64,000 bases of DNA. Origin: Heterodontus francisci. Its lineage: Eukaryota. The DNA lies in assembly GCF_036365525.1 (NCBI RefSeq), contig NW_027140825.1, forward strand, positions 1,302,001 to 1,366,000, read 5' to 3'. Positions 13,011 to 46,517 of this stretch are shown one piece after another. Each line of letters begins with the position of its first letter. Position 1 is the stretch's first letter. The position numbers were made by a program, and so were the translations under genes. The notes below the pieces were generated by a model, which saw nothing but the letters and a program-made list of their open reading frames with translations, did no database searches and had not been told where the DNA came from.

Positions 13011-13049
13011 TGTTTTTGTTGAACTGCTCCATCTCTCTGAGTCACTGTG
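13011..13049 (-). other. 23-spacer RSS of V1
   Basis: cacagtg (13049-13043), 23 nt, acaaaaaca (13019-13011). Confidence 0.95.
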
Positions 13050-13542
13050 CAGACTCCAGGCACAGAAATACAGCGCCGAGCGATTCTCCTGCAGGCTGGA
13101 GGACTCCAGGTTGAACTGGGAACCAGTCGGTCGTTTGGCAGTGAAACCCTCCACCGTCCCTTCTGAGTTCACACTTGGTGTAACTGCGGAGTAAAACATC
13201 AGCCGCAGCTCCTTCCCCAGGTCCTGTCTGTACCAGAACATGTAACCGCTACTCTGGCCCTCCACACGGCACTCCAGTCCCACTCCCTCCCCAGGAAATC
13301 TGGAGACGGCGGTGGGAGTCTGGCGGACCCTCGCTGAGATCGCGCCTGAAGGAAGAGACCGGGAGAGAAGAAGGTCAGTGAACAGGGACAATCTGGGATG
13401 TGAAGAATGAAGGAAGGAGAGAAAGATAGAGAGAAAGAAAATAAGAAAGAGAGCTGTTAACACAAACAATGGGGGTGTGGGGTGGAGGTGAGAAAGATCC
13501 CTTACTTTGAAATAAGACCATGAGACTCAGTAACAGATACAT
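13050..13542 (-). CDS. TRBV: V1: TCR beta-type V gene, CAWS/TRBV30-like family, inverted, open frame (leader 13542-13506, V exon 13345-13050)
   Basis: Leader MYLLLSLMVLFQ with gtaag donor; ttcag acceptor; V exon SARVRQTP..LECRVEG..MFWYRQ..LYFCAWSL in frame; followed by an RSS. Confidence 0.93.
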
Positions 13543-15390
13543 CTTCCACTGGAAGCTTATCCTGCAATTGGGAAATCAGTGGAAAGAAGAGAGTTGAGTC
13601 TTGTGAGAAGCCACATGAAGACTCAAGCAAGTGATTCAGGTTTGTCCAACACCTTCCTACCTTCCTACCACGCCCCGCTCTCTACCATTGGCTGCCAGTA
13701 GTTGCTGTTGCATTTGTTGGTATAGATCTGCTGCTGAAGTTGTTGTTGTATTTGTTGTTGTATTTGCTGGTGCTTTTCTCCGACTGAGGTTGTTGAATTT
13801 GTTAGTGCTTGAATCTTCTGCTGATCTGTTGTTGAATTTGTTGGTGTTTGAATCTCCTGCTGATATGTTGTTGAATTTGTTGGCGTTGTTTTCCTTTTGA
13901 GGTCGTTGTTGTGTTTGTTGGTGTTTTCCCTGCTGAGGTTTTTGTTGTACTTGTTTCCTTCCCTGCTTCAGTTGTTGTTCAATTTGGTTTTTCATGTTGT
14001 TGTATTTTTTGGAGTTTTTTCCCCCCTGCTGAGGTTATTTTCTCTTTTTTAATTCATTCATGAGATTTTGGTTGTGGTCAGCATTTATTGTCCATCCCTA
14101 ATCGTCTAATTGAGAAGGTGGTGCTGAGCTGCCTTCTTGAACCACTGCAGTCATGTAGGGTCGGTAAACCCACAGTGCTGTTAGGAAGGGAGTTTCAGGA
14201 TTTTGACCCAGTGACAGTGAAGAATTTTCACAATGACTGGAGTTCAGTGCGGTGAAGAACTTAACCCTATAACTCCCGTTTAGCAGAAGGGGGTGAAATA
14301 AAACTGTCTTGGCCCCGAAACAAGGCAGCAGGCTGACGGGTCTTATTGGGTCATCGTATCATGCAGGTCAAATCCAGGCCATTCAGCCCATCGATCCTGG
14401 CCTGGCAGCTCGAAAGAGCGACTTCCTCCCATCTTTCTTCATCTTACCCTATCAACAGATTCTTCTATTCCTTTCTCACTCATGTATTTATTCAGCTCCC
14501 CTTTAACTGCATCGTCTCTATTCGACCTCAACCCATTCCATTTGGTCTGTAATTCCACATTCTCTCCGCTCCCTGGGTTAAAGAACCTCCTCCTGAATTC
14601 CCAATTGGATTTATTAAGGACTACCTTACATTTATGATCCCTTATTTTCATCTTCCCTGTCCAATTGCTCCCACTCCCTGTTCTTTCTGAATAACCCTGC
14701 ACTTGATCTTGCAGCTTGTCTGCCTCCTTCCTACCATTACAACAGTGACTGCACGTCAAAATGTATTTGACTGGTTGAGGCTTGAGTGAAGCAGAGAACT
14801 GTCGGGCCGAATGGCGCGGATCTTTGCATTAACTTCCATCTAGTTCTGTGCCACAAGCGCCAACACGAGTCGAGTAGGAGAATATAACTAATGACTGAAA
14901 CAGGTTCAGTATCTGACAATGAAACGCCTGCAGAATCAGTGCTTGCAGTTGCACCTGGAGCCACTAGGTGCCAGTGTTACTCCACTGTAGCCGCTGCCCA
15001 GAACATGCTCAGACAGAGTGAGCTTTACCCACAGCAGCTCCACAGGTCAACTTGGCTGCTTCTGAAATGTTTCACTTCTCAACTATTTCACAGACACACA
15101 AAAAAAAAAACGCAGTTGGACTTCATCATGTTTGGTCTTTAATAGTGACCAGAGCACCCCGGATTCGCCTGAGGCCTCCTTAGCTCAGCCCATGAAATGA
15201 CCTGTCAACATGTCAACATGTGGGAGCCAATGAACCATCAGGAATTTGCACCCCCTCCCTCCCCCCAATGGGAACATGAAACAGTGGGGAGGAGGAGACA
15301 GTAAATGTCACTCAGAACATTGAGATTTTCTGCAATAAACCAGCTCAGTGATTTCACACAATGAACACATGGATCTGTCTCCCTCCAGAG

Positions 15391-16284
15391 ATGACTGTGT
15401 CTCACCTCTGCGTTGTGTTGCTGGTGTTAAGGGGTAAGGTGGACCTCGACTGGGAGATGTCAGTCATCTTCACTGCTCTTTCCCTGTGTGACCCCATTGG
15501 GAGTTTACCCCCTTACAAGGCACCGTCACTGTGATTATTAATTTAGCTGCTCTCTTTCTCTTTTTGTATCCCTTTCTCTATCTCTCTTTCTCTCTGTCTA
15601 ACAATAAATGTTCCTCTATGTCTGTCCCTCCCAGTCTCCCTGTCTCTCTGTCTCTCTTACTCTCTCTCCCTGTCCTCTTAGCTCCTTCATGTCTGTTGCC
15701 GATGTCTAGAATGTTGCTGTTTTTCTCTCTCTGTCTGTGCTTCCCTCTCTCTCTCTCTCTCTGTCTCTGCTTCTCTCCTTTTCTCTCACTCTTTTTCACT
15801 CTATGTCTCTCTCTCTCTTTGCAGCTCCCCGTCTCCCACCTCTCCCTTCTTACGAAGAAACACGGGACATTTAGGGCACACAGCAGGTCATTCAGCCCAT
15901 CGTGCCTCTCCCCTCTTCGTGGCCGATGTCAATTTAAACATTGTCCCTGGGTTTATCTCTCTCTCTCTCTCTCTCTGTTTTACAGATGTGGGGGCCGTGT
16001 TGATGCAACAGATTCCCGCTTCCATATCCTATTCCCCAGGCTCTCCAGTCAGTATCCAGTGTATTTACACAAAGGCAGATGCTGGCTCCGATATCCACTG
16101 GTACCCGTGGCATCCGGACCGTGAGCCCGAGAACCTTTTCTATTCCACCTCTGCCGGAACAGTCATTCCCTCCAGAGAGGTTGGCGGTTTCACCGCCAGG
16201 AGACCCAGCAACACCCATTTTTCCCTGGAGTCCACCAGCCTGTGGGTGAATCAATCAGCCGTGTATTACTGTGCCTGGAGTCTG
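15391..16284 (+). CDS. TRBV: V2: TCR beta-type V gene, divergent CAWS family, open frame (leader 15391-15433, V exon 15986-16284)
   Basis: Leader MTVSHLCVVLLVLR with gtaagg; tacag acceptor; V exon VLMQQIP..IQCIY..IHWYPW..VYYCAWSL. Confidence 0.9.
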
Positions 16285-16323
16285 CACAGTGACTCAGAAA
16301 GGTGCCAGATTTCAGCAAAAACT
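16285..16323 (+). other. 23-spacer RSS of V2
   Basis: cacagtg, 23 nt, gcaaaaact. Confidence 0.93.
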
Positions 16324-17466
16324 CTAAAGGGGGAGGAAAGCACTTGTGGGAGATGAACCCGTCTGTCTATCTCAGTGTCTTTCTGTCTCTCTGACTATCT
16401 GCAGGTTTCTGTGTCNNNNNNNNNNNNNNNNNNNNNNNNNNNNNNNNNNNNNNNNNNNNNNNNNNNNNNNNNNNNNNNNNNNNNNNNNNNNNNNNNNNNN
16501 NNNNNNNNNNNNNNNNNNNNNNNNNNNNNNNNNNNNNNNNNNNNNNNNNNNNNNNNNNNNNNNNNNNNNNNNNNNNNNNNNNNNNNNNNNNNNNNNNNNN
16601 NNNNNNNNNNNNNNNNNNNNNNNNNNNNNNNNNNGGTTATTTGCACTATTTATCTATCTATTTACCTTGATTATATATATATTTGTCATCGATTTATCTC
16701 TCCGTCTCTCACCTCTCTAAATATGCATCCACCATACATCTGACGTTTATCATCTATCTAACACCATTATTTACACCATACCAGTTTAATTATTGATGCA
16801 TCATGATTTGTATTTTACTGATAGTTTCACCTTCTTGCTCTCCTTCGACTCAGAGTACATCAATACATTATGAATTATTAAAAATGCTGCAGCAATGTGC
16901 TCAGATCCTTCTCGTTCAGGCAGCCTCTACCTGTAAAGAACAGATTCCGAGGTGGGGTAAATGGGTTTATGGTCCTGTTGAATGAGCTGTCGGTGGTATG
17001 TGACAAGAGTTACACATAGCTCCCTATTGTACATGTCCACGATGATTCATACAATGCAAAAGTGAGACACCTCCCCAGAGAGGTCTCTCACTGGAAGACC
17101 TGCCTCCTGACGGCGGTTTGAGCATCTGTTCAAAACAGTTAACCCACTTCTTCATGACACTGTCGCTTTTCAAAGTATCTAAGATTTCACCCCAATGTAA
17201 AACATAACCCTTGAATTGTCGTTTAGCACAGGGAAAAGAGCTACCCAATGCAACACCAATCAGACACAAGCAACGAGAGCCAGATACAGACGGGAAGCAT
17301 TTCCTTATTCAAGCTCCTTCCGACCAGTGGGTGTTATTATTCTGTCATACCCAGAAGTGAGGGGTCAGAAGGAAACCCTGCTTCCAGTGCTGTCATTTCC
17401 ACTCTCTGCTTTATCTTCAGCCGCCTGATATTGGTTCATGAACAGATTCAGCCCTCAGTCTGCAGG

Positions 17467-18282
17467 ATGCAGTTAGTCAAACTCTTCCTAATCGTCTGTT
17501 CTCTTCTTCCATGTAGGTATTCATCGTTCATAAAGATACCTGTGCTAAAATACATGCTGTGTTTTCATTCACTACTAACTTCTATCAAACTAGATTGATA
17601 AAACATCATTGCAGTCGATTTTCTGTCATTTCTTAAACTACTTACTTTACTTTCACTGTCAATAATATTTACTTAATGAAATTTATGACTGAATAAAAAT
17701 TACTTATATATTCGTGACGCTACTATACCTATCTTTAACCGATAAGTTTTCCCTAATTCTGGATTAATTTGTCTGTCTCATATCACTTGCTACATTATTT
17801 TACAATCTCTATATCTATCTGTGTATTATCTATATATCTACAAATATATCATTTAACGATATATTGTCTGCCTATATAGTTATCTAGTATTATCTACTTA
17901 TCTATTTGGATAGTTATAGTTGGTTATCATATGTCACAATATGTTCTAAACTTTTTAAACTATTCTCCTTATTTCTCAAGGCAAAACTCTAGCAGAGGTG
18001 ATACACCAGTGGCCAACTCTGGTGGTGGGGAAGAGAGGTGAACCAGCAGAATTAAACTGTTACCAGAATGACAGTAGTAAGAGCGTTATGCTGTGGTATC
18101 GGCAGTATGCCGGGCAGGGGCTCACCCTAATGGGTCATTTTATTAATGGAATCCCAGTCACATACGAAGGAAAATTTGAGGAGGAGGTGAAGATTTTAAG
18201 GCCCAAGGAGAGACGATGCAGCCTGAGGGTCCTCAAGGTTAAGGCTGCGGATGCGGCAGTGTATTACTGTGCAGCCAGTGAG
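17467..18282 (+). CDS. TRBV: V3: TCR beta-type V gene, open frame (leader 17467-17512, V exon 17981-18282)
   Basis: Leader MQLVKLFLIVCSLLP with gtaggt; V exon EVIHQWP..LNCYQ..MLWYRQ..DAAVYYCAASE. Confidence 0.92.
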
Positions 18283-18321
18283 CACAGCGCTGCAGACTGC
18301 CTTAGTGCCAGTGCAAAAACC
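18283..18321 (+). other. 23-spacer RSS of V3
   Basis: cacagcg, 23 nt, gcaaaaacc. Confidence 0.93.
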
Positions 18322-18669
18322 AACAGGGTGAACAACACAACTGACTGACAGACAGGAGCAGTGACAATGGTTCCCTGCCACACCAGCCATTTTCCAAGCT
18401 GGTGATTCCCGGATTCCTGAACCTTCATCAAGGGCTGAATGACAGGGAATAGCAGAAGGTACGAGGAAGAGAGAGAAGGAAAGAAAGAGATGTGCCTCAG
18501 ATCCCCTGCAAAATTTCAAAGTCCTCGTCTACACTGTTTAATTTCTGGCACTGTGTATGTTAAAACTAAATCACTGTCGCTGTCTCAGACTTGATTAAAT
18601 AATAGGTTAATTAATGATCTAAATAAGACAGAAAGTTAACATCACCATTGTGAAGTGATCGATAGAGTA

Positions 18670-19200
18670 TCAATCATCTACAAGGTACAAGTCAGGAGTG
18701 TGATGGAATACTCTCCACTTGCCTGGATGGGTGCAGCTCCAACTGCACTCAGGAAGCTCAACACCATCCAGGAAAAAGCAGCCCTCTTGATCAGCAACCC
18801 ATCTACTACCTTCAACACTCACTCCCTTTATCACATGGCAGAAGTGTGTACCATCGACAAGATGCACTGCAGCAAAGCATCGAGTGTCCTTAGACAGCAC
18901 CTTCCAAACCAACCAACTGTACCAACTAGAAGGACAAGGGCAGCAAATACATGGGGGCACCACCACCTGCAAGTTCCCCTCCAAGTCACACACCATCCTG
19001 ACTTGGAACTATATCACCGTTTCTTCACTGACACTGGGTCAAAATCCGGGAACTCCCTTCCCAACAGCACTGTGGGTGTACCTACCCCCCATGGCTCAAG
19101 AAGGCAGCTCACCACCACCTTCTCAAGGGTAATCAGTGTTGTGAAATAATTGCTGGCCTTGTGAAAGAAACTCACGTCCCATGAAGGAATAAGAAAAAAA
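18670..19200 (+). mobile_element. 3' fragment of a second LINE family (non-LTR RT C-terminus)
   Basis: IYKVQVRSVMEYSPLAW..LNTIQ.KA motif and a 3' end caccaccaccttctcaagg; related copies at about 14060-14220 (-) and 63350-63750 (-). Confidence 0.75.
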
Positions 19201-19489
19201 GTTATATCAGGTCTTTCACGACTTCAAGACGCCCCAAGACAGTTAACAGCCAATTAAGAACTGGAAAATGATAGTCAGATCCTCTGCTACTTCTTCTCTT
19301 GCTTTGATTTTTTTTTATTCATTCTGGGGACCTGGGTCCCTCTGAGAAGGCCAGTAGTTATTCAACATCGCTAATTGCCCTGGAGAAGGTGTGTGCTGCC
19401 TTGTAGATAACTGAAGAGTTTGCTAGGTCATTTCAGAGAGCAGTGTACTTAAAACACGGAAGCCAATTGGTGTACAGCACCATGCAATA

Positions 19490-19537
19490 GGCAGCAGAGA
19501 CAGGCAGATAGATAGCTAGGAAGGCAGACAGGCAGAC

Positions 19538-19587
<50 letters not shown>

Positions 19588-19900
19588 CAGACAGATAGAT
19601 AGACAGACAGACAGTCAGACAGATAGATAGAAAGACAGATGGGTAGACAGATTGATAGATAGACAGACAGATAGGCAGACAGATAGATAGACAAATAGTC
19701 AAATAGATTGTTAGATAGACAGACAGATATGCAGATAGGTAGATATGAAGACAGACAGACGGATTCATACAGATAGAGAGACAAATTGACACAGATAGAC
19801 AGACAGACACACAGCCATGCAGATATATAGATAGAGAGAAAGATAGACAGATAGCTACAGAGATAGATAGATAGCTGTATAGATAAATAGACAGAGATCT
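19490..19900. repeat. (GATA)n/(GACA)n microsatellite
   Basis: Directly visible. Confidence 0.95.
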
Positions 19901-20039
19901 TTTTCTCCCTTTCTCCATCTATCTCTATCACTGCCTCTCTTTTACTCTAACTGTTTTTCACCATATCATCCTCTCTGACTCTGTCTCGCACTATGTCTCT
20001 CTCTCATTCCTTGGCACTTTCACATACACTCTATCACTC

Positions 20040-21640
20040 CAATAGAATCGTAGAAAGTTTAAGGCACAGCAAGAGGCCAATTGGCCCATCGTGTCTGTGG
20101 CGGCTGAAAAACAATCCACCTATTCAAATCACACCTTCCAGCATTTGGTCCATAGCCCTGCAGATTACGGCACTTGAGGTGCATATCCAGACTCCTTTGA
20201 ATGAGTTGAGAGTGTCTGCCTCAACTACCCTTTCAGGCAGCGAGTACCTGACCCCCACCACTTCTAAGGTTTTCCTTTTCTCCCCTCCAATTCTTCTAAC
20301 AATCACATAAAATCTCTTCCCCCTCGTCACTGATCTCTCTGCCAAGATGAATAGACCTTTCACCTCCACTCTATCCAGGCCCCTTCAATATTTTTTACAT
20401 TTCTAACAGACCTCCCCTCAGCTTTCTCTGTTCCAAGGAGAACAACCCCAGCCTATCCAATCTTTCCGCACAGCTGCATTTTCCAGTTCTGGCAACATCC
20501 TCGTAAATCCCCTCTGTACCCTCTCCAGTGCAATTACATTCTTTCTGCATTGAGGTGACCAGTACTGCACACAGTACTCAAGTTGTGGCCTAACCAATGA
20601 TGTATACAGTTCCAGCATAACCTCCCTGTTCGTGTATTCCATACCTCAGCTAATAAAGGAACGGATTCCATATGCCTTCTTAACCAACTTATCGACCTGT
20701 CCTGCTACCTTCAGTAATCTGGAGACATTCACTCCAAGTTCCCTCACTTCCTCTACACTTCTCAGTATTTTCCCATTAATCGTATGTTCCTTTGCCTTGT
20801 TTGACCTCCCCAAATGCATCACCTCACACCTCTCCAAGTTGGATTCCATTTGCCACTCTTCTGCCCATCTGACAAGACCATCAATATCTTCCTGCAGCCT
20901 ACAGCTATCCACCTCGCGATCTACCACACGGCTAATCCTTGTGTTGTCTGCATACATCTTGAAAATGCCCCCCTACATTTACATCCAAATCGTTAATACA
21001 TACCACAAAAAGCAGGGAATCCAGTGCTGAGCCCTGTGGAACGCCACTGGGAACAGCCCTCCAGTCGCTAAAACACCCATCAACAATTACCCTTTGTTTC
21101 CTGCCACTAAGCCAATTTTGTATCCACCTTGCTGCATTTCCCTTGATCCCATGGGATTTTGTTTTTTTTGAACCAGTCTGCCATGTGCAGCCTTTTCAAA
21201 AGCCTTGCTAAAATCCATGTAGACCACGTCAACTGCACTACCCTCATCTATCTTCCTTGTTACTTCTTCAAAAAATTAGATCAAGTTGATAAAACAAGAT
21301 CGTCCCTTAACAAATCTATGCTGTCTATCCTTGATTAACCCATGCCTTTCTAAGTGACAGTTTTTCCTGTCTCCCAGAATAGATTGCAATAATTTTCTCA
21401 CTACTGAGGTCAGACTGACTGGCCTGTAATTAGTCAGTCTATCCTTCTCTCCCTTTTTAAACGGAGGCACAACATTAACAATTCTCCAATCCTCCGGCAC
21501 CACACCTGTGAGGACTGCAAAAAGATGGTCAGACCCTCTGCTATTTCTTCTCTTGCTTCTTTTTGCAGCTTCGGATTCATTTCATCCGGCCCTGGTGATT
21601 TATCAACTTTCAAGGATGCTAATCCAAATAATGTTTCCTC
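20040..21640 (-). mobile_element. Decayed CR1 LINE ORF2 3' half
   Basis: Fragment ORFs PEDWRIVNV, NYRPVSLTS, YADNT, LYTSLVRPQLEYC. Confidence 0.88.
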
Positions 21641-21703
21641 CCTCAGCTTCGCTCCCTTAAACCCAGAGCAACCAGCAGAAAGTGTCTTAATTCCGCCGCA
21701 AAC

Positions 21704-22794: not shown

Positions 22795-23529
22795 ATGTCT
22801 TTCAGTTTCATCGTCTTTGCTATTTCCCTTCTGGCGCTGAGTAGGTTAAAATTCTGTCCCAATCAATCTTCTACATTTGTTTAACTGAAAGGGATGATTA
22901 ATAATCTCTACAAAAACTGAGCGGCGGTGACTTGTGAAATCAGTAATCGATTATTTCATATCAGACAGTGAACTCATTCATCTGTCCCCTAGTTCGGGAA
23001 GACAAGTGTTATTAATATGATGTTAACTCTTTAATGTTTGCACCCACTTGCAAACTTGTGGATTCCACGATTCTATTTTACAGTTGTAAAGATCCAGGTG
23101 CTTGCAGGAAATTAGGACACAGACCGAATTTCCGTCGTTAATTTGGTGCAACACCGACGTCCATCGTCTCAATTGTAACTCCATCGATACTAGTTCATTC
23201 ACTCTAATTTCTCTTTCTAGGTGTTTGCCGGGGTGATGTGATACATCAATGGCCTCAGTCACTGGCTGTTAAACAACCAGGACCCGTGGAAATTAACTGT
23301 CTGCAGAAAGGAACAGTTCGCAACTACATGTACTGGTATCGTCAGTCCCCCGGCGGAGGATTCCTGTTAATCGGGTTTACCTATACAGCAGGTGAACCTC
23401 AGTATGAAGATGGATTTAAGAGCGGGTTTGTTATTACCAGGACTCTGAACAATAAGAAATCCACTCTGACGATCGAGAGTGTGAACGCCACGGACGAGGC
23501 GGTGTATTTCTGTGCAGCTGGTGATGGGA
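22795..23529 (+). CDS. TRBV: V4: TCR beta-type V gene, open frame (leader 22795-22840, V exon 23221-23529)
   Basis: Leader MSFSFIVFAISLLAL with gtaggt; V exon DVIHQWP..INCLQKG..YMYWYRQ..YEDGFK..DEAVYFCAAGDG. Confidence 0.93.
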
Positions 23530-23568
23530 CACAGCGGTTCAGAGTCATTGGCCGCCTTGACAAAAACC
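23530..23568 (+). other. 23-spacer RSS of V4
   Basis: cacagcg, 23 nt, acaaaaacc. Confidence 0.95.
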
Positions 23569-23779
23569 CTCACACGTCTCCCTTCAAACGGGTGCATTTA
23601 ACCCAGCATTCCGTGAAGAGCAGCCCTGGCTGATCGGATGCGGATCTGCATCTGTTCAGTGCCCGTTCGAGTGGCAGAACGCCCATGTTCTAACTCCCCA
23701 CAACCTCCAGACAGGCAACACACACTGTCTGTGCCCACACCTGAATAATGGTTCATAGAACGGCTCTTCAACACGTACC

Positions 23780-26910: not shown

Positions 26911-27038
26911 CCCAAAGACTAAATAAATACGACTTCAAACTGGAGACCTCCAGCCTGCGGGAGAATCACTCGGCCGTGTATTTCTGTGCCTGGAGTCTTC
27001 ACAGTGATTCAGAGAGATGGAGCAGTTCAACAAAAACA
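26911..27038 (+). pseudogene. TRBV: V5: 3' remnant of a CAWS-family V (FR3 only) with an intact 23-RSS
   Basis: ..RLNKYDFKLETSSLRENHSAVYFCAWSL, then cacagtg (27000-27006), 23 nt, acaaaaaca (27030-27038); no 5' half or leader found. Confidence 0.9.
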
Positions 27039-27907
27039 CCAAAGGCAGCAGGAAACATCTGTTTCAGAGAAAATTGCTCGGTACCTCGACCTACTGTTCC
27101 CTTATGCAGAGTGACAGTGTTTATTACAATAAAAAGAGTTGTGTTATGATTGTAGTGACACACTAGATTTACAGGTACTGCCGAGGGTGCAATGAAGGAT
27201 TAATAAGGATGTCACGAGATTTCAGAATGAAATTATCAGGAATCAATGACAATAATCTGGGTATTGAAACATTAACACTGTGTTTACCTTCTCCACAGGC
27301 ACAGCAGAGGGGGATCCAGGACCATGGACCGGACAATGGCTTTCAGAACGATTTAGTGAGAAAACTAAGAGAGCAGGAGATCATGTAGATCCAGCTTGAT
27401 ATACATCAACAGGACAAGGAAACCCACTACTTTAGAGAGAGAAAGAGTGTGTATGTGTGTGAAAGAGAGAGCGAGATCTAGTGAGAGAGAGGAAAAACGA
27501 CAGGCAGAGTTAAAGAGACTGAGACAGAGAGAGATACAGCGATCGAGGCAAAGACAGTGAGACAGCAAGAGACACATAATGAGGGAGAGAGAGAGACACT
27601 GAGATAAAGAGCTTGTGACAGATAGGGAGATAGATCTAGAGAGAGACAGAGACAGGGAAATAACTGAAGAGATAACAAGATTAAGAGAGAGGGAGAGTCA
27701 GAGAGAAGGAGAGAATGGGAGACATAACCTTAGATACATGAGGAGAGAGAGAGTCAGAGAGAGAAAGTGAGCCAAGATAGACTGAGATAGAGAGGGAGAG
27801 AGAGTCTGAGAAAGGAAGAGAGTGGGAGACATAAACCTAGACACATGAGGAGAGAGAGAGAGAGAGACAGAGAGAGAGTGCAAGAGAGCGGAAGGTAAAC
27901 TGAGATA

Positions 27908-28144: not shown

Positions 28145-28600
28145 ATGTATCTGTTACTGTGTCTGATAATCTTGTTTCATTGTAAGTGAATGTGAAATGC
28201 AAAAACTATCGGTAATAACTGTCCCCTCTTCTCCCTGTCTCCCTTTCATTCCCAGAAGTTCCCTGTTTACTGATCTCCTCCTCTCTCCATCTCTCTCCCA
28301 GATGTGAACTCACAGACTATCCTCCAGACTCCCGCTGCTGTCTCCAGATTTCCCGGGAAAGGAGTGGAACTGAGGTGCACAGTGGAGGGGAGCAGCAGTA
28401 ACATCTACATGTACTGGTACAGACAAGAGCCAGGGAAGGAGCCGCTGTTGATGTTTTACTCCAATACTGCTAACTATGTGGATCCAGAGGGGACGGTGGA
28501 CGGTTTTACCGCCAAGAAACTGAATAAGTACGAGTTCAAACTGGAGTCCTCCAACCTGCGGGAGAATCACTCAGCCATGTATTTCTGTGCCTGGAGTCTT
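28145..28600 (+). CDS. TRBV: V6: TCR beta-type V gene, CAWS/TRBV30-like, open frame (leader 28145-28181, V exon 28302-28600)
   Basis: Leader MYLLLCLIILFH with gtaagt; V exon SQTILQTP..LRCTVEG..YMYWYRQ..MYFCAWSL. Confidence 0.94.
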
Positions 28601-28639
28601 CACAGTGACTCAGAGAGATGGAGAAGTTCAACAAAAACC
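28601..28639 (+). other. Consensus 23-spacer RSS of V6
   Basis: cacagtg, 23 nt, acaaaaacc. Confidence 0.96.
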
Positions 28640-30254: not shown

Positions 30255-31087
30255 ATGTTGCATGAAGTTCTCTGTTTAATCTTGATGGCTGCATTCTTTC
30301 CACGTAAGTGAAAGTCAGAAACTGTGTAGAATAATGTATTGTAATGTCAGCGGTGATTCTGTCTGGAACACTCCTGTGTCTGAGTCTCACTCCACAACAC
30401 TTGAGCTCAAAGTCAAAAGTAACACCCCAGGTGTCAGGGCTGAGGGAGTGCTGCACTGTCGCAGAGGCAGGACTGAGGGAGTGCTGCACTATCGCAGAGG
30501 CAGTACTGAGGGAGTGCTGCACTATCGCAGAGGCAGTATTGAGGGAGTGCTGCACTGTCGCAGAGGCAGTACTGAGGGAGTGCTGCACTATCGCAGAGGC
30601 AGTACTGAGGGAGTGCTGCACTGTCGCAGAGGCAGTACTGAGGGAGTAACTACATTGGTTGCAAAGCCTTTCTGATGTCTTGAGGTCCTGAACGGCGCTA
30701 TATTAATGTCAGCCCTTTCTTTCTTGCAATGCAGCTCCTGCTCCAATCCATTATTGACTGAAATAATAATTTAATCGATGTTCCATCCCACAGGAATACT
30801 CGCCTCCTATGTGGAACAGTCGCCCTCTATCCTATCGATTGCAGCAGGAGATTCAACAACACTCAGATGCACGCTGACCAATACTGGCTGTACATTAATG
30901 TACTGGTACAGACAACAACCAGACAGGGCACTGGAATCTCTGTTCTATTCTGCGACAGAAGGGTCTGTTACAAATTACACGTCTGAGTCATTTAATGCAG
31001 TCAGATCCAGCAATGCACTGTTTACTTTGGCACTGAGAAACGCTGCTCCATCTCACACCGCTGTCTATTTCTGTGCTTGCAGTATCG
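30255..31087 (+). CDS. TRBV: V7: TCR beta-type V gene, open frame, two extra cysteines (leader 30255-30303, V exon 30794-31087)
   Basis: Leader MLHEVLCLILMAAFFP with gtaagt; cacag acceptor; V exon YVEQSP..LRCTLTNTGCTLMYWYRQ..VYFCACSI. Confidence 0.9.
30440..30647. repeat. 33-bp minisatellite (~6 copies) in the V7 leader intron
   Basis: agtactgagggagtgctgcactatcgcagaggc units; related to the repeat at 6527-6690. Confidence 0.92.
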
Positions 31088-31126
31088 CACAGTGTTTGAG
31101 AAAGCGGATTCGCAGCTGCAAGAACC
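31088..31126 (+). other. 23-spacer RSS of V7
   Basis: cacagtg, 23 nt, gcaagaacc. Confidence 0.9.
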
Positions 31127-36278: not shown

Positions 36279-36769
36279 ATGTATCTGTTCCTGGCTCTGA
36301 TAATCCTGGTTCAACGTGAGTGCCAAATACAAGGATTATCCTTCAGAACCTTTCTCTCCTCTCCCTGTTTTTCTTTCATTCCCAGAAGTTCCCTGTTTAC
36401 TGATCTCCTCCTCTCTCCATCTCTCTCCCAGATGTGAACTCAAAGAATATCCACCAGACTCCCGCCGCTGTCTCCAGATTTCCCGGGAAAGGAATGGAAC
36501 TGAGGTGCACTGTGGAGGGGAGCAGCAGTACCCTCTACATGTACTGGTACAGACAAGAGCCGGGGAAGGAGCCGCTGCTGATGTTTTACTCCAATACTGC
36601 TAACTATGTGGATCCAGAGGGGACGGTGGACGGTTTTACTGCCGAGAGACCGACTGACTCCCAGTTCAACCTGGAGTCCTCCAGCCTGTAGGAAAATCAC
36701 TCGGCCGTGTATTTCTGTGCCTGGAGTCTTCACAGTGACTCAGAGAGATGGAGCAGTTCAACAAAAACC
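36279..36769 (+). pseudogene. TRBV: V8: CAWS-family V pseudogene (in-frame TAG at 36689-36691) with a consensus 23-RSS
   Basis: Leader 36279-36315, V exon 36432-36730 nearly identical to V6 but with a stop before the second Cys; RSS cacagtg (36731) to acaaaaacc (36761-36769). Confidence 0.92.
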
Positions 36770-38770
36770 CCAAAGGCAGCAGGAAACACCTGTTTCAGAT
36801 AAAACCAGGTGGTGCTGCGTCTTGTTGGGTGTTGTTTTTTTTATTATTGGGAACATGTTTTTCACAAGAAGACAGGGCGAAATTTAATAGAAAGTCACTC
36901 TAGAATTTGCCTTTATAGCCACTCCAGGCGCTGCTCCACACACCACTGACCACCTCCAGGCGCTTACTCATTGTCTCTCGAGATAAGGAGGCCAAAGAAG
37001 ACGAAGATATAGAAACACAGGGGAATTGTGAAATAGACTTTACAGGAATGATATCAAAACACAGAGGTTAAAGTTATCAAGATAATTTGAGCATCGGGGG
37101 ATCTTTGCTCCACAAAGGTGAAGACTGAAGGGTCAACGTTCAGCGGTCTTTGAGAGGTTAATAAATATTTTAATATGTGAAATGAAGATCAGATAAAGNN
37201 NNNNNNNNNNNNNNNNNNNNNNNNNNNNNNNNNNNNNNNNNNNNNNNNNNNNNNNNNNNNNNNNNNNNNNNNNNNNNNNNNNNNNNNNNNNNNNNNNNNN
37301 NNNNNNNNNNNNNNNNNNNNNNNNNNNNNNNNNNNNNNNNNNNNNNNNNNNNNNNNNNNNNNNNGTGTTATGTCACTGTGTTTTCTTTCTCCAAAGGGAC
37401 AGCAGAGTGCGCTGTAGGACCATGATAAATATCAGAGTCTGGAACACACTTTGACAGTGACCTGGGAACACAACGAGAACATTCATCACCTCGGAAACAC
37501 TCCGCCCTTCAATGAGATCACGACTGATCAATACATTCCCATCGCTCCCTCTCTGCATTCCACTCTCTCCCTCTCCATCCCTCTCTCCATCCCTCTTTCT
37601 CCCTTTATTTCCATCCCTCTCTCTCACTCTATCTACCAAGCTGGTGTAAAATGAGAGAATGCCGTTATACATTCCTGTCTTTTACAGGGGCAGTGACTGT
37701 CTCTCTATCTATCTCTCGATTTCTCTCCCTCTCTCTATATCTATCTGTCTACCTGACTGTCTCTCTATCTAGCTCGATATTTCTCTACCTATCTGACTTT
37801 CCCTCCATCTCTCTATTTCTCTACCTCTCTCTATATCAATCTGTCGACCTGACTGTCTCTCTCTCTATCTATCTCTCTACCTGGTTGTCGATCTCTTTGT
37901 CTCTCTATCTATCTATCTCTCTACCTGTTTAAATATCTCTCTGTCTCTGTATCCATCTAACTCTATCTTTAGGCGATTACAGTTCGTGTGAACTAATTAA
38001 ATATACTGCAGTAATGTAACAAATGACTGTCTTTTCATAGATTTTCTATATATTAACCAGTAGAAGATGTCGTTCATCATCAATTATCTATCAAAATCCT
38101 CTATGATCTTCAATATCTGGATCACATCTACCATTAACCTTCTCTGCTCTAAGGAGAGAAACCCCCAGCTTCTCCAGTCTCTCCACAGTAACTGAAGTCC
38201 CTCATCCCTGGCACCAGTCTGGTTAACCTCCCTCTAACCTTCACTGCAAAGAGGCGAACAACTCCCAAATGTACAGGAACTCAATACATCTGGCGATTAA
38301 ACATCGAGACAGAGAGGGTGAATCAGGGAGACATAGAGAGGAAACACTCAGCATAAATGAAGGGGTCAGAGGGAGACAGAGAGAGGAAGATGCACACACA
38401 CGCGTGCGCACACACAGATACAGAGAGAAAAAGAGAGAGAAAGAATGGGAGACAAAGCTCGATACATGCAGAGAGAGAGTGAGCAACAAATAGTAAGAAA
38501 GAGAGAGGAAGATGCACACACGCGCATACACACACACAGATACAGATCCTGTTCCTCCCAATGATTTGTAAAGAGTGGGTTGGTTATTGACAGCACTCAT
38601 CATTCCTGCTCTCTCCCCTTTGCTGATTCATTGAGATTTCATTGAAACAATATTTCTACTTCACATTTCTTTTGGTTATGTTTTTATTTATTTATCTATT
38701 TCTTTCTCTCTCCCCACTGGACTGAAGTTCCCTGTTTATTGATCTCGTCCTCTCCCTGTCTCTTTCCCAG

Positions 38771-39094
38771 ATGTGAACTCACAGACTACCCGCCGCTGTC
38801 TCCAAATTTCCTGGTGAGCAGGTGAAGCTGAAATGCACCGTGGATGGTAGCAGTGACCCTTACATATACTGGTACAGACAATACCCGGGGAAGGAGCTGC
38901 AGCTGATGTTTTACTCCCTAACTGCACAAGGGGTGAACTCAAAGGGGACGGTGGAGGCTTTCACCACCGAAAGACCGACTGACTCCACGTTCGACCTGGA
39001 GTCCTCCAGCCGACGGGAGAATCATTCGGCCGTATATTCCTGTGCCTGGAGTAATCACAGTGACTCAGAGAGATGGAGCAATTCAACAAAAACC
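38771..39094 (+). pseudogene. TRBV: V9: CAWS-family V pseudogene (11-nt deletion in FR1, no recognisable leader) with a consensus 23-RSS
   Basis: cagacta|cccgccg lacks tcctccagact compared with V6; the rest reads LKCTVDG..WYRQ..VYSCAWSN; RSS 39056-39094. Confidence 0.9.
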
Positions 39095-39606
39095 CGAAAG
39101 GCAGCAGGAAACACCTGTGGAGGGTAAAACCGTTCGGTGCCTCGACCTGCTGTTCCCTTTTGCAGAGTGAAAGTGTTTATTACAATAAAAAGAGCTGAGT
39201 TAATATTGTAGTGAGATTTTAGATTTACAGGTACTGGCGAGGGTGCAATGAACGATGAATAAGGATGTCACGAGATCTCAGAATGTAACTATCTGGAATC
39301 AATGACAATAATCTGGATTTTTTATGCACTGACCCTGTGTTTACCTTCTGCACAGGGACAGCAGAGGGGGTTCCAGGACCATGGAATGGACAATGGCTTT
39401 GAAAAGGATTTAGTGAGAAAACGGAAAGAGCGGGAGGTCTGCAGATCCAGCTTGATATACATGAACAGGACAAGGACACCCACTTTGTTAGAGAAGGGAA
39501 GATAGTGTATGTGTGTGACAGAGAGAGATCTAGTGAGAGAAAGCAAAAACGACAGACAGAGTTAAAGAGACTGAGACAGAGAGGGAGACAGAGATAGAGA
39601 CAATAA

Positions 39607-40047
39607 GGGGATATTACAGGGATTGATCTGGAGAATGAAGGATTATTGTAGGGATTGATCTGGAGAATGAAGGATTATTATAGGGATTGATCTGGAGAAT
39701 GAGGGATTATTATAGGGATTGATCTGGAGAATGAAGGATTATTATAGGGATTGATCTGGAGAATGAGGGATTATTATTGGGATTGATCTGGAGAATGAAG
39801 GATTATTATATGGATTGATCTGGAGAATGAGGGATTATTATTGGGATTGATCTGGAGAATTAAGGATTATTATAGGGATTGCTCTGGAGAATGAGGGATT
39901 ATTATCGGGATTGATCTGGAGAATGAAGGATTATTATAGGGATTGATCTGGAGAATGAGGGATTATTATCGGGATTGATCTGGAGAATTAAGGATTATTA
40001 TAGGGATTGATCTAGAGAATGAAGGATTATTATAGGGATTGATCTGG
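39607..40047. repeat. 32-bp minisatellite (~14 copies)
   Basis: agggattgatctggagaatgaaggattattat units. Confidence 0.95.
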
Positions 40048-40049
40048 GA

Positions 40050-41420
40050 GATTGAGTGGGGTCAGTGAGTGGAGTCAGTGAGTGGAATCTATGAGTGGGG
40101 TCAGTGAGTGGTGTCACTCAGTTGAGTCAGTGAGTGAGGTCAGTGAGTGGGGTCAGTGAGTGGGGTCAGTGAGTGCGGTCAGTGACCGGGGTCAGTGAGC
40201 GGAGGCAGTGAGTGGAGTCTGTGAGTGGAGTCAGTGAGTGGGGTTAGTGAGCGGGGTTAGTGAGCGGGGTTAGTGGGGAGTCAGTGAGTGGGATCAGTAA
40301 GCGGGGTCAGTGAGTGGGGTTAGTGAGCAGGGTCAGTGGGGAGTCAGTGAGTGGGATCAGTAAGTGGAGTCAGTGAGTGGAGTCACTGAGTTGTGTCACT
40401 CACTGAAGTCAGTGAGTGAGGTCAGTGAGTGGGGTTAATGAGCAGGGACAGTGAGTGGAGGATGTTAGTGGAGTCCGTGAGTGGAGTCAGTGAGCAGAGG
40501 CAGTGAGTGGAGTCTAAGAGTGGGGTCAGTGAGTGGGGTCAGTGAGCGGGGACAGTGAGCGGGGACAGTCAATGGAGTCAGTGAGCGGGGTTAGTGAGTG
40601 GGGTTAGTGGGCGGGGTCAATGGGGAGTCAGTGAGTGGGATCAGTAAGTGGGGTCAGTGAGCGGGGTTAGTGAGCGGGGTCAGTGCGTGGGGTCAGTGAG
40701 TGGAGTCAGTGAGTGGAGTCACTGAGTGGTGTCACTCAGTGGAGTCAGTGAGTGAGGTCAGTGAGTGGAGTCAGTGGGCGGGGACAGTGAGTGGAGTCAG
40801 TGAGCGGGGTTAGTGAGCGGGGTTAGTGAGCGTAGTCAGTGAGTGGGGTCAGTGACAGGGGTTAGTGAGTGGGGTCAGTGCGTGTGGTCAGTGACTGGAG
40901 TCAGTGAGTGGAGTCACTCAGTGGAGTCAGTGAGTGAGGTCAGTAAGTGGGGTCAGTGAGTGTGGACAGTGAGTGGACTCAGTGAGTGGGGTCAGTGAGA
41001 GGAGTCAGTGAGTGGTGTCGGTGAGTGGAGTCAGTGAGCGGGGTCAGTCAGTGGGGTCAGTGAGTGGGGACAGTGAGTGGAGACAGTGAGTGGGGTCAGT
41101 CAGTGGTGTCAGTGACTGGGGTCAAAGAGAGGAGTCAGTGAGTGGTGTCAGTGGGTGGGGTCAGTGAGATGAGTCAGTGAGTGGGGTCACTGAGTGGGGT
41201 CACTGAGTGGGGTCACTGAGTGGGGTCCGTGAGTGGGGACAGTAAGTGGAGTCAGTGAGAGAGGACAGTGAGTGGAGTCAGTGAGTGGTGTCAGTGAGTG
41301 GGGTCAGTGTGTGGGGTCACTGAGTGGGGTCAGTGAGTGGAGTCAGTAAGTGGTGTCAGTGAGTGGGGTCAGTGAGTGGGGTCAGTGAGTGGGGTCAGTG
41401 AGGTGGGTCAATGATTGGGG
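40050..41420. repeat. 13-bp G-rich minisatellite (~1.4 kb)
   Basis: cagtgagtggggt / cagtgagtggagt units. Confidence 0.95.
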
Positions 41421-42495
41421 TCTATATCGATCGATCTATCTATCTATCTATCTCTCAATCTATCTATCTCTCAATNNNNNNNNNNNNNNNNNNNNNNNNN
41501 NNNNNNNNNNNNNNNNNNNNNNNNNNNNNNNNNNNNNNNNNNNNNNNNNNNNNNNNNNNNNNNNNNNNNNNNNNNNNNNNNNNNNNNNNNNNNNNNNNNN
41601 NNNNNNNNNNNNNNNNNNNNNNNNNNNNNNNNNTTCTATTGTTCCATTTGTCTATCCATCCATTGCTCTATCGATCCCTCCAGCTATCGATACATATCTC
41701 TATTTATCTCTATTTATCTATTTATCTATTTACTCTGTCATCTATATATATTTGTCATCGATCGATTTATCTGGCTCTTGTCTGTCTAAGTGTATATCCA
41801 TCCCTCTGTTGTTTATCATATATCTAACGTCATTGTTTACATCTCGCAGTTCCATCAGTGATATATCATGGTTTGCTATTTTGTTGATATTGTTGTATCT
41901 TCTTGTTCTCCTTCGATTCAGATTATATCAATACAATATTAATGATTAAAATGCTCCATCCACGTGATAAGGCTCTTTTCGTGAGGTAGCCTCTACATTT
42001 TAAGAACAGATTACAAGGCAGGGTAAATGGGTTCATGATACAGTTGAAAGAATGGACGGAGGATTCTGACAAGGAGTTGCACAGAGCTCCCTATTCTACA
42101 TGCCCCTGATGATTCATACAATGCAAATACGAGACAACTCCCCAGATAGGTCTCTCACTGGAACAGATTCCTAATTTGGCGGTTTTGAGCAACTGTTGAC
42201 AATTATTAACCAACTTGTCTTTCAGACACTCGGTGTCTTTTGAAGAACTTTCAAAGCATCTGGGAGTTAGGCCCAGGCAAGAATTTAACCCTTCAATTCT
42301 CGTTTAGGAGACAGGGAAAATAAATCTTTCTCAGCCTAAAACAAATAAGCCCCTTGATGCATCTTAGATAGTTATAGAATCATACAGCACTGACCAAGGT
42401 CATTCGATCAATCGAGCCTGGTCTGGCTGTTCGAAACAGTTACCCAAAATAAACAACATCATCCCTTGGCCATGGGCTGCAAGAAGTACAGAATC

Positions 42496-43196
42496 TGTTA
42501 CAAACTGCTGGATAGCACATGAACTAAAGTAACCTGAGCTCAGACACTGGCCTGTGCTGGTAAAAACCAGTTTGAACTAATTAATTTATGTGACAGACAA
42601 GGGAGAAATCACAGGAATAGAGCCTTATTTGGAAACGGTGTGATACCGGGGTCTTTGGGCCTGGGCCAATAAGGAGAAGATACGAACGAGGTGAGCAGGC
42701 CTAAACCAACAGGAAAGAGACAGCACAGTTTTGAAGAGATAAGAAAGAGAATAAGTATGGAGAATCTCAGGCATAGAACCAGCGAGAAACTCCAGAGACC
42801 AACCATTGTGGAAGTGGAAGACCCTGCGTGAGCAACGCGGTGATGACGTAAAAGAGAGAGAGATCAGAACGTCTGGCCAGCATCAGCTCTTCCCTTTCCG
42901 GGAATTATCGTTTGTTTTCTGTGACGAGGTCAGGGAAAGGTCAGAGGAACCTGGTGGGTGTGCTTATCAATTCTAGCTAGCTTTGTTATTAACTGTATAA
43001 CCCAGTTGAGTTGCATGCTTTTGTCTAACCAAGTGTATAAGCCTTATTCTTCCATTGTACAACAACGTGAATAAAGTAACTTGATAGTTAAAGAAAGGAC
43101 TGAGTTTCCTCCTCTTTGTACTAAGCCATTAACCGTAACTGGTGGATTAGGTGGAGGGTGGCTCTCCTGTAACCCCAATATCCCAAACACGTGACA
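42496..43196 (+). mobile_element. Possible solo LTR
   Basis: Begins tgttac, ends gtgaca (imperfect terminal inverted repeat), internal aataaa near 43069; no clear target-site duplication. Confidence 0.35.
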
Positions 43197-43419
43197 GCCA
43201 GAATCAAGTGGGTGAAGGGAATAAAGGGGCCAAGGGGGAGTTGACTCCGCACCACGGTTTAAAATCCTGTTCCCATCTCTCTGCATCTCAGCCCATCAGC
43301 ACCTCCTTCTATTCCTTACTCCCTCATGTCCTGATCTAATCTCCCCCTTAAATGCATCTCCACTATTGGCCTTAACTTACTCGCTGTGGTCGTGAAATTG
43401 AGCCCCCTGGTTCTAGACT

Positions 43420-45170
43420 TCTCAACCACAGAATCACAGAATTGTTACAGTGCAGAAGGAGGTCATTCGGCCCATCGTGCCCGCACTGTCTCTCTGGAAG
43501 AGAAATTCCCTCAGTCCCACTCCCCTGCCTTCTCCCCATAACCCTGCACATCCTTCCTTTCAATATAACTGTCTAATTCGCTCTTGAATGCTTCAATTGA
43601 ACCTGCCTCCACCACGTTCTCAGGCAGTGCATTCTGGACCTTCACCACTCGCTGTGTGAAAAAGTTCTCCCTCATGTCACTTTTGCTTCCCTTACCAAAT
43701 ACTTTAAATCTGTGCCCTCTCGATCCTTTCACGAGTGGGAAAAGTTTCTCTCCATCTACTCTGTCCAGATCCCTCATGATTTTGAAAACCTCCATCAAAT
43801 CACCTCTCAGCCTTCTCTTCTCCAAGTAAAACTGTCCCAACCCGTCCTTCCACTCTTAATGACTGAAACAAATATACACCTAGGCCCCTGTGCTCCTGCA
43901 CCCCCTTTCGAGTTGTGCCCTTTATTCTCTATTGTTCATCCGACCAAAATGAATCACTTCACATTTCTCTGCATTGAACCTCATCTGCCACCTGTCTGCC
44001 CATTCCACCAACATGTCTATGTCCTTTTCAAATTCGACATTATCCTCCTCATCATTCACAATGCTTCCAAGTTTCGTATCATCGGCAAACTTTGAAATTG
44101 TGCCCTGTACACCGAGGTCTAGGTCATTAATATATATCAGGAAAAGCAAAGGTCCTAATACTGATCCCTGGGGAACTCCACTGCAAACCTTCCTCCAGCC
44201 CGAAAAACCATCCATTAACCATTGCTCTTTGTTTTCTGTCACTAAACCAATTTCGTCGCCATGTTGCTACCGTCCCTTTTATTCCACGAGTTACAAGTTT
44301 TCTCACATGTTTGCTGTGTGGCATTGTATCAAACGCCTTTTGAAAGTCCATGTATACCACATCCACAGCATTGCCCTCATCAACCCTCTCTGTTGCCTTC
44401 TCAAAAAAATTCTAGCAGGTTAGTTAAACATGATTTTCCCTTATGGAATCCATGCTGTCTTTCATTAATTAACTCGTCCATGTGACTATTGATTTTGTCC
44501 CGAATTATTTTTTATAGAAGTTTCCCCACCACCAAAGTTAAACTGACTGGCCTGTAGTTGCTGGGCTTATCTTTACCCCCTTTTTGAACAAGGGTGTAAC
44601 GTTTGAAATTCTCCAGTTATCTGGCACCAGCCCTGAGTCTAAGGAAGACTGAAAAATTATGGCCAACGCGATTTCCACCCTCACTTCCCTCAGTATCCTT
44701 GAATACATCTCATCTGGTGCTGGTGCTTTATCTACTTTATGTTCAGACAGCCGATCGAACACTTTCACTTTACCCATTTTACACACTCTAGTGTCTGACT
44801 TACCTTCTCTTTCAACCAGAGGAAACTTCTTGCCTGCATCTACCCTGTCTATCCCTTTAAGGACTTTGTAGGTTTCAATGAGATCACCTTTCATTCTTTG
44901 AAACTCCAGAGCATTCAGGCCCAGTTTCCCCAATCTCTCTTCATAGGACAGTCCCGCCATCCCTGGAACAAGTCGGGTGAAACTTCTTAGCACTCGTTCC
45001 ATGGGAATAATATCCTTCCGAAGGTCAAGGGACTAAAACTGCACACAGTACTCGAGGTGTGGTCTAACCAAGGTTCTCCACGATTGAAGCAAGACTTCAT
45101 TACTCCTGTACTCAAATCCCCTTGCGATAAAGGCTAACATAACATTAACTTTCCCAATTGCTTGCTGATG
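43420..45170 (-). mobile_element. Decayed CR1 ORF2 fragments
   Basis: SGVPQGSVLGPLLF, FADDTKL, DFQKAFD, RRLRGDLMEV ORFs. Confidence 0.88.
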
Positions 45171-46024
45171 CTATATGTGAAGTCTCTACCTTCCGAAGCT
45201 CCTGCCAGGGGATATCATTTCTCCCTAACTGCTCTATCGAACGGCTGTACCTCCAGGGTTAAAGCGTCCCATTTGCTTGCTCTGATCCAGGAAAACTGTC
45301 CCAGCTTCTCCAGTCTCTCCACATAACAACCGTCTCTCAACCATGGCACCATTCTGGTAAATGTCTCTTCAACAGCCCTGGTCTAAGGATAACGATGGCA
45401 TAGTTGCAATGTCACTGCGATAATAAGCCAGAGGCCTAGGCTGATGCCCAGGTTACATGGGTTCAGGCACAGGCACACCCAGTGCAATTTAAACTTGCCA
45501 AGGACCCAGTAATGTGCATAGCCCTGCTGTAGAATAGGCAAGGAGCCCAGTGCCACACAGGTGGCATTGCACCTATTTGCCTCAGGCCACTGTTGCTTAC
45601 AACGTTTGCCAGGAGACACACGGCATCGACATCTGGCTATTCGGAGATGAAGGTGTGGATAAACTGGAATCCAGATGTCTATAAATTGGAAATCTACACG
45701 TGGCTAATGTGGGAATGCCGATGAGGTTCGTTGGGGATCTGGATATGTTCAATTGGAGATTTCTCATCAGTAAATTAGAAACTGAACAACATACATCCTT
45801 GTTGGGGATATTAACAACACTTAATCCAGTCACTCAACCATAACAAGGAACCACGTCCATTCTGATTGGTTGGGTGTTGGAAGGGGGCGTGTCCAACACT
45901 GCATCACTTCCTCATGCTCTTCATATTTTCCTCAATGATTTGTAAAGAGCAGGTTTGGACCCTCACAAGGCTTACACTCCGGTTCTCGCTGCTTTGCTTA
46001 TTTCTAAACAGCTTCAAGGGGAAG

Positions 46025-46478
46025 ATGTATCAGTCATTGGCTCTGATAATCCTTTTGCACTGTGAGTGAGTCTGAAATACCAACGTTTTCTCTAATAACC
46101 TTCCTATACTCATTCCCTCTTCCTTTCATTTCCTAGAAATCCCCTGTTTACTGACCTCTTCCTCTTCCCCACTCTCTCCCAGGTGTGAACTCGCAGACTA
46201 TCCTCCAGACTCCTGCCTCTGTCTCCAGAGTTGTGGGGGAGGAAGTGGAACTGAAGTGCACTTTGGAGGGGAGCAGTACCCTTAACATGTTCTGGTACAG
46301 ACAATACCCGAGGAAGGAGCCTCAGGTTATGTTTTACTCCACGGGTACTAATCACAAAAATCCAGAGAAGGAGGTGGATGGTTTCACTGCCGAGAGACCG
46401 ACTGGCACCCAGTTCAACCTGGAGTCCTCCAGCCTGCGGGAGAATCACTCGGCCGTGTATTTCTGTGCCTGGAGTCTT
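46025..46478 (+). CDS. TRBV: V10: TCR beta-type V gene, CAWS/TRBV30-like, open frame (leader 46025-46061, V exon 46183-46478)
   Basis: Leader MYQSLALIILLH with gtgagt; V exon SQTILQTP..LKCTLEG..MFWYRQ..VYFCAWSL. Confidence 0.93.
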
Positions 46479-46517
46479 CACAGTGACTCAGAGAGATGGA
46501 GCAGTTCAACAAAAACC
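46479..46517 (+). other. Consensus 23-spacer RSS of V10
   Basis: cacagtg, 23 nt, acaaaaacc. Confidence 0.96.

Follow-up and report, generated by a model that had tools for sequence, protein, structure and literature searches.

The window analysed here is a whole stretch of 64,000 nucleotides from the shark Heterodontus francisci (genome of 6.0 Gb), located at positions 1302001-1366000 of contig NW_027140825.1 (C779 hereafter). Its main feature is an array of variable (V) segments belonging to TRB, the beta locus of T-cell receptors (TCR), most of which end in the residues CAWS, as does TRBV30 of mammals. Within positions 13011-46517, ten V elements were found, every one of them followed by a recombination signal sequence (RSS) with a 23-base spacer and 0-2 mismatches; a relic lies just beyond. 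The elements are as follows.

13011..13542, minus strand: V1, open gene of CAWS family F1 (leader 13542-13506, V exon 13345-13050, 23-RSS 13049-13011).
15391..16323, plus strand: V2, open gene of the divergent CAWS family F2, placed in the CAWS clade (leader 15391, V exon 15986-16284, 23-RSS).
17467..18321, plus strand: V3, open gene of family F4, starting with IHQWP and ending in CAAS, outside the TRBV30 lineage.
22795..23568, plus strand: V4, open gene of family F5, starting with IHQWP and ending in CAAG, outside the TRBV30 lineage.
26930..27038, plus strand: V5, a CAWS V reduced to its 3' part, the 23-RSS being intact.
28145..28639, plus strand: V6, open gene of the CAWS family (leader 28145, V exon 28302-28600, perfect 23-RSS).
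30255..31126, plus strand: V7, open gene of family F3, ending in CACS; the tree does not fix its placement.
36279..36769, plus strand: V8, pseudogene of the CAWS family with an in-frame stop.
38771..39094, plus strand: V9, pseudogene of the CAWS family with a frameshift near the exon start; the search gave no leader.
46025..46517, plus strand: V10, open gene of the CAWS family (leader 46025-46061, V exon 46183-46478, perfect 23-RSS).
47874..48100, plus strand: relic V11 (leader 47874, DVNSQIVLQSP at about 48063-48100, no RSS, rest of the V exon deleted).

The Y.CAWS end was found in seven of the ten elements (V1, V2, V5, V6, V8, V9 and V10), and four of these (V1, V2, V6 and V10) are open genes with leader and RSS. 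A previous sequence-only reading of this DNA had proposed that the seven, together with relic V11, share some or all of five motifs. This applies to the seven CAWS elements, in which exact forms of Y.CAWS occur 7 times, of WYRQ..G....L.FYS 4 times, of A.RP...QF.L.S..L 3 times, and of SQTI.Q.PA and CTVEG.S 2 times each; relic V11 contains none of the five in exact form. The segments are genuine and do not result from chance, as illustrated by an exact tag combining CAWS with the RSS heptamer, which gave 325 matches in the genome vs 0 for the reversed control. All seven open V genes of the window that were tested scored above the cut-off of the Pfam V-set domain, and V3 matches a stored V of Heterodontus francisci at 67 of 77 residues (compared by eye).

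The CAWS genes are TRBV genes, on the basis of their linkage to diversity (D), joining (J) and constant (C) segments of TRB and of an RNA join to a TRBJ. A shark TRBC exon is located 9 kb past the window on the minus strand, with 12 J and a D (C779:1395485) ahead of it, and TRBC was the only type of C gene found in the 1.26 Mb mapped. The TRBD is flanked by 12/23 RSS and has a GGGACA core; the D cores are GGGACARCAGGGA and GGGACAGGGGGGA, and a search for a mammal-type D pattern gave no match. The RNA evidence consists of contigs from four runs of one sample, the RNA status of which was guessed, no listed run being recorded as RNA. The leader-to-V splice 46061>46183 is present in these contigs, and one contig ends with the in-frame junction CAWS-QRS-VGEAYFG, the end part of which matches a TRBJ found in two mapped units. 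Because this contig differs from V10 at 8 places, it represents the CAWS family and not V10 itself. Besides, RNA contigs were seen to cross the RSS of unrearranged CAWS V into paralogue-specific 3' sequence (window 46476-46800); these are likely germline V transcripts.

The relation to TRBV30 was assessed against PDB chains and in phylogenetic trees. PDB rankings were dominated by multi-domain antibody constructs, and the comparison was made on single-V rows, by score. At a threshold of 1e-15, the only single-V chains retrieved with a CAWS V were the MEL5 beta chain, two MEL5 variants and 5xov_J (69.8-66.2 bits), the best other V domain among the printed alignments scoring 46.0 bits. These chains were also the top single-V rows for V10, for a 12-row profile and for a teleost CAWS gene. 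MEL5 is described as a TRAV12/TRBV30 receptor (PMC5887915), and 5xov_J is presumed to be a TRBV30 chain as well because its score equals that of MEL5. The best single-V matches of the CAWS genes are thus human TRBV30 chains, in line with the resemblance proposed by the sequence-only reading. The controls behaved differently: V3 retrieved 5 PDB chains at 1e-12, no TRBV30 chain being among them, the best single-V chains for V7 were of TRBV6 type with MEL5 and 5xov_J not retrieved, and no MEL5 or 5xov_J chain occurred among the best 60 PDB rows for V4. Single-sequence homologue searches yielded 3 proteins only.

Trees were built over 96 columns from 15 V of the genome (7 from the window, 8 picked at <72% identity) together with 82 stored V domains out of 529, the labels TRAV, TRDV, TRGV and immunoglobulin (Ig) being assigned by us from motifs. 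Under LG+G4, a CAWS clade of 27 rows from sharks, rays, sturgeon, teleosts, caecilian and turtle was recovered (96/76). After removal of 15 rows (Ig, unlabelled and turtle), a mixture model gave a 21-row clade of shark, ray, two teleost and caecilian genes (98/94) inside a wider CAWS clade (92/67), and forced monophyly of all 27 chondrichthyan V was rejected (p=4e-5). From the 98/94 clade with bony-vertebrate CAWS genes and this rejection, it follows that the lineage is older than the split between sharks and bony vertebrates, in agreement with the sequence-only reading. The stored proteins included no mammalian TRBV30, and the case for membership is therefore made from the PDB ranking together with the clade; on this sequence evidence, the CAWS genes of the window likely represent the shark branch of the TRBV30 lineage. 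The IHQWP start shared by V3 and V4 had been taken as a further sign of this lineage. The start is indeed present, but the two genes fall in another clade (98/97 and 95/92 in the two trees) and forcing them into the CAWS clade was rejected by the approximately unbiased (AU) test (p=0.0036).

Alternatively, the CAWS family could be an old TRBV lineage that merely resembles TRBV30, as its sister or by convergence, its inverted position being a coincidence. Such a reading draws on trees devoid of mammalian TRBV30, on a wider clade whose SH-aLRT (Shimodaira-Hasegawa-like approximate likelihood ratio) support stays below 80, on an AU test with TRGV-like rows (p=0.27) and on the occurrence of every V family in inverted position. 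We consider it quite improbable, since TRBV30 chains lead the next V domain shown by >20 bits, also for the teleost CAWS gene, the shark-teleost-caecilian clade is starred, and in 5/5 mapped units the intact V nearest ahead of the decayed constant gene TRBC-B, described below, is of CAWS type. Two further V sets were observed: family F8 (APTVIQTP...), at C779:664791, 928180, 1199439 and 1426081, groups with eel and tarpon V (94/63) apart from other TRBV, and F9 is a set related to F8 with seven broken copies.

The array extends far beyond the window. Over 1.06 Mb (C779:602001-1666000), 187 V were counted, i.e., 94 core CAWS, 20 of the V2 family, 30 of V7 type and 43 in six groups, so that the CAWS family is, as the sequence-only reading claimed, both expanded and dominant (114/187). 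Among them, 113 were open by a loose test that wrongly passes V9; a strict test, which probably rejects two families in error, left 94. The CAWS share was 58/113 or 50/94, respectively. The 113 open V form 8 families at 75% nucleotide identity and comprise 106 distinct sequences. Exact tags of three families increased from 58 to 321, from 23 to 118 and from 12 to 67 between this region and the genome, i.e., by a factor of 5.1-5.6, where 321 stands for the 325 CAWS matches minus 4 off-locus ones among 100 listed. The three tags together mark 510 genome sites. Extrapolation by this factor leads to a whole-genome estimate of 960-1,045 V, about 500-600 of them open. Human TRBV30 is a single gene in a TRB locus of some 65 gene pieces. 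The CAWS family of the shark, with 325 exact tags, is far from the single copy of mammals. The seven contigs concerned amount to 8.5 Mb, part of which is simple repeat without V. Of 20 stretches sampled and screened for V, D, J, C and long open reading frames, those taken from the initial 590 kb of C779 and from the middle part of C1317 showed no V. The TRB arrays border long tracts of simple repeat or satellite at C779:1-590000 and C1317:600001-910000.

The C gene past the window belongs to a repeated D-J-C unit, called unit A, whose constant gene is TRBC-A. At least 21 TRBC-A exons were detected at 1e-12 (among the best 150 of 349 candidates scored), 19 of them with an identical score, and were distributed in both orientations over C407 (6), C779 (4), C2233 (4), C761 (3), C1675 (2) and C1317 (2). 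Each of the six units mapped, four in C779:602001-1666000 and two more, head-to-head, in C407:340001-540000, has its own D-J cluster, in which one or two D are accompanied by about 10-14 J, and the number of D and the J sequences vary between units. One D occurs in 14 exact copies, one of which lies at a contig end without its C. Such an arrangement, with TRBC in both orientations and V arrays between them, differs from a single-translocon TRB layout. It also differs from the shark Ig-type cluster of one V, 1-3 D, one J and one C, given the many V and the 10-14 J per unit.

This multi-unit structure could partly be an assembly artefact, in which both haplotypes as well as false duplications were retained, the true locus holding about half of the units or fewer. 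The contigs are unplaced, the counts are those of the assembly, and pairs or triplets of TRBC-A and V10 loci differ by 0-7 positions per 3.3 kb. When 15 of the 21 TRBC-A loci were compared over 3.3 kb, 8 fell in three near-identical groups (0-6 differences). However, the 15 loci form 10 groups at least 27 differences apart, and the V10 loci form 11 groups among 24. Since one diploid locus allows two groups, many units must be real even if both haplotypes were kept. Moreover, six TRBC-A are found on C407 and four each on C779 and C2233, the units are unlike in D number and J sequences, and a halved count would still leave at least 10 units. Hence, an artefactual origin appears distinctly unlikely. 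A comparison of contig ends revealed no clear overlaps beyond paralogous similarity.

The window also contains a second, opposite unit (unit B), which shares its strand with the V array, V10 being the final intact V ahead of it. Its parts are listed below.

53335..53400, plus strand: J-like remnant, an RSS-like stretch with no FGxG.
53618..53700, plus strand: J segment with a 12-RSS, coding part 53646-53694 (VNDPSTFGGRTRLAVL) and a GT donor.
57158..57496, plus strand: frameshifted Ig-domain exon of pseudo-TRBC-B (24 copies, 0 open).
59920..59937, plus strand: putative short second exon of pseudo-TRBC-B with a Cys codon, assigned from splice sites and position.
60101..60210, plus strand: transmembrane exon of pseudo-TRBC-B, open, with a Lys at the TRBC position.

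The three-exon C gene thus spans 57158-60210. All 24 TRBC-B copies are frameshifted in the Ig exon, one lesion being common to copies, and the 60 best PDB rows are without exception TCR beta chains or TCR chains of beta type. The unit-B J also has 24 copies, FGxG being retained in 2, and a further J with FGNG occurs in 2/5 unit-B intervals; no D for unit B was found in the five intervals scanned. TRBC-B is located tail-to-tail, 16-20 kb behind 18 of the 21 TRBC-A, the other 3 TRBC-A being at most 11 kb from a contig end. V10 has 24 copies in the genome, and a V10-type gene stands 10.6-19.2 kb upstream of TRBC-B in 23/24 copies. The identity between C-B and the main C is 34%, as compared with 61% between the main C and sawshark TRBC and 32-36% between the main C and five teleost TRBC. 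Since C-B and teleost TRBC stand at about equal distance from the main C, the split between A and B must be old; a nine-row C tree rejected no placement of C-B (p 0.22-0.23) and does not fix it before or after the shark/bony split. Contigs covering exactly the pseudo-C exon, with frameshifts, occurred in 3/4 runs. One contig contains a GT..AG joint (window 57073-57159) that links a cryptic donor, located 85 bases upstream, to the pseudo-C exon. At the locus edge, a unit-B J copy at C779:583878 has a V10-type gene upstream and no pseudo-C was found behind it. Near 48380, GGGACAGCAG was considered as a D core and rejected, being without RSS and recurring behind V genes.

We therefore read the window as part of a shark TRB V array in which the CAWS genes likely belong to the TRBV30 lineage and owe their abundance mainly to a whole block that was likely duplicated about twenty times; we give this reading a probability of roughly 75%. 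The duplicated block would consist of a V array followed by J and the broken C-B, tail-to-tail with C-A, J, D and a V array on the other strand. In this model, RAG would join D to J within unit A, then V to DJ. A V upstream of a same-strand unit would join by deletion, and arrays like that of the window would join by inversion, as TRBV30 does, or by reaching the next same-strand unit. Among the 187 V, 65 face a same-strand unit, 112 face the back of a C and 10 face out of the mapped region. Unit B would give no protein. Several CAWS V each were found in bamboo shark and rays, so the family was probably multi-copy before the block amplification, which would then have multiplied all V families alike. 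The decayed J-C unit may also be the origin of the backward TRBV30 of mammals. Accounting for most of the copy number, the duplication of whole V-D-J-C units was overlooked by the sequence-only reading, whose interpretation is partly supported overall: its core claim stands once the point on V3 and V4 is dropped.

Several findings weigh against our reading. The unit count is drawn from unplaced assembly contigs, among which some near-identical units may be haplotype duplicates, and the V total is extrapolated from 1.06 Mb. The trees comprise 96 columns and no mammalian TRBV30, neither wider CAWS clade (96/76, 92/67) is starred, and a tree in which 18 chondrichthyan CAWS genes were forced together with two TRGV-like rows was not rejected (p=0.27). 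The window's plus-strand genes and the V10-type copies do lie inverted and 3' of TRBC, but inverted position is common to all families (CAWS 71/109, 65%; other V 41/68, 60%). Finally, the RNA contigs come from one sample of guessed RNA status, and their V-J junction is not assignable to an inverted V.

Selection on the specificity of the CAWS genes, independent of block duplications, could also have driven the expansion. The family makes up 61% of V on one contig with many local tandem copies, and several copies exist in other sharks and in rays. Against this, broken copies are proportionally more frequent in it than in any other family (the strict test is failed by 64 of 114), and three families scale genome-wide by a common factor. 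We regard such an expansion by selection as rather unlikely, and duplication of the whole block remains the preferred explanation of why CAWS genes are so numerous.

Compared with TRBV30 of mammals (TRBV31 in mouse, TRBV28 in opossum) and with the 3'-inverted TRBV of amniotes, the shark genes share the best sequence match, the CAWS end and an inverted CAWS member as first intact V 3' of TRBC (PMC11264764; PMC2275272; PMC11754216). They differ from what these papers describe by hundreds of copies, two families, both orientations and a decayed J-C unit before TRBC. Inverted TRBV are reported to form a weakly supported amniote clade including axolotl members, sister to squamate TREV (PMC11754216), and the reason why the inverted TRBV30 is conserved is left as an open question in print (PMC11264764; PMC11754216). 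The squamate TRE likewise is a second TRB-like unit with V akin to inverted TRBV, but it works as a functional unit, is not linked to TRB and has been proposed as specific to squamates (PMC11754216); it was compared with the shark by description only.

Duplication of whole V-D-J-C units, some head-to-head with V between, is known in salmonids, where head-to-head pairs in four loci carry 119 V in salmon and 188 V in trout (PMC10464911). The shark assembly differs from this description by at least 21 units, mostly with two D, in mixed head-to-head and tandem order, each with a tail-to-tail pseudo-unit, and by about 5x more V. In newt and axolotl, six and five D-J-C units were described, together with inverted V clusters and one divergent TRBC (PMC12698447, PMC12529555), the six units of the newt being said to exceed other vertebrates and its inverted clusters to rearrange (PMC12698447). 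Many C units, inverted V clusters and a divergent second TRBC class are thus common to urodeles and shark; urodele units are same-strand and functional, whereas the divergent C of the shark is opposite-strand and broken, with a unit number >3x higher. The Atlantic cod has triplicated TRB translocons with 34 V, all forward (PMC13149839), and resembles the shark in that whole translocons were duplicated recently and V order was conserved, with three units only. Reviews consider TCR loci as translocons in all lineages, unlike shark Ig (PMC6795676; PMC2275272). The repeated, self-contained rearranging units seen here recall the shark Ig multi-cluster organization (PMC6795676, PMC1845163), although an Ig cluster has one V and one J, a TRB unit has many V and about 10-14 J, and the seven contigs may be one region.

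In the literature searched, which comprised few subscription papers and no supplements, no shark TRBV30 lineage and no genomic map of shark TRB was described. Trout and axolotl papers of the 1990s reportedly noted V genes resembling human V-beta 20 (TRBV30), and Rast and Litman (1994) and Hawke et al. (1996) are said to have pointed to multiple TCR-beta loci and to seven V families in the horn shark. If so, both the age of the lineage and the multiplicity of loci had been hinted at earlier, which leaves the map, the scale and unit B as what is new; the age of the lineage, taken by itself, surprises less. PMC11754216 comes with a tree supplement that contains nurse shark V and may be relevant to the claim about the lineage.

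If true, the number of TRB units, at least 21, would be >3x, and that of V, about 1,000, 5x that of the largest cases in the literature covered. Allelic and locus exclusion of TCR-beta could then be put to the test in a species whose cells each have some 40 rearranging units, and the decayed opposite-strand J-C unit offers a concrete, testable origin for the inverted TRBV30. A bolder scenario, which we regard as a long shot, is that the ancestral TRB of jawed vertebrates had two opposite-facing units, the TRBV30 lineage being the forward V array of the second one. The shark would keep this unit as a fossil and mammals only its last V; the double unit would have been amplified about 20x into the largest TRB locus described, one needing locus exclusion like that of shark Ig. 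Survivors of the second unit might then be seen in squamate TCR epsilon or in the divergent TRBC of urodeles.

Other features of the window are the promoter and leader of a V1-type gene, orphaned without its V exon, and several repeats.

49575..49788, plus strand: orphan promoter and leader of a V1-type gene.

The motif CAGCAGAG.GCG/GGG... occurs at 27289, 29047, 37387 and 48375, about 300-700 bases behind several CAWS V and relic V11. Minisatellites were found at 5564-6505 (repeat of ~160 bases), 39503-40690 (32/13) and 55588-56984 (37 bases), the last lying between J and C of unit B and differing in length among copies. Elsewhere in the genome, other large C1-set arrays are present on C46 (16.27-16.87 Mb, about 37 copies at a spacing of about 16.5 kb), C8 (115-125 Mb), C34 and C23, and these are probably Ig clusters.

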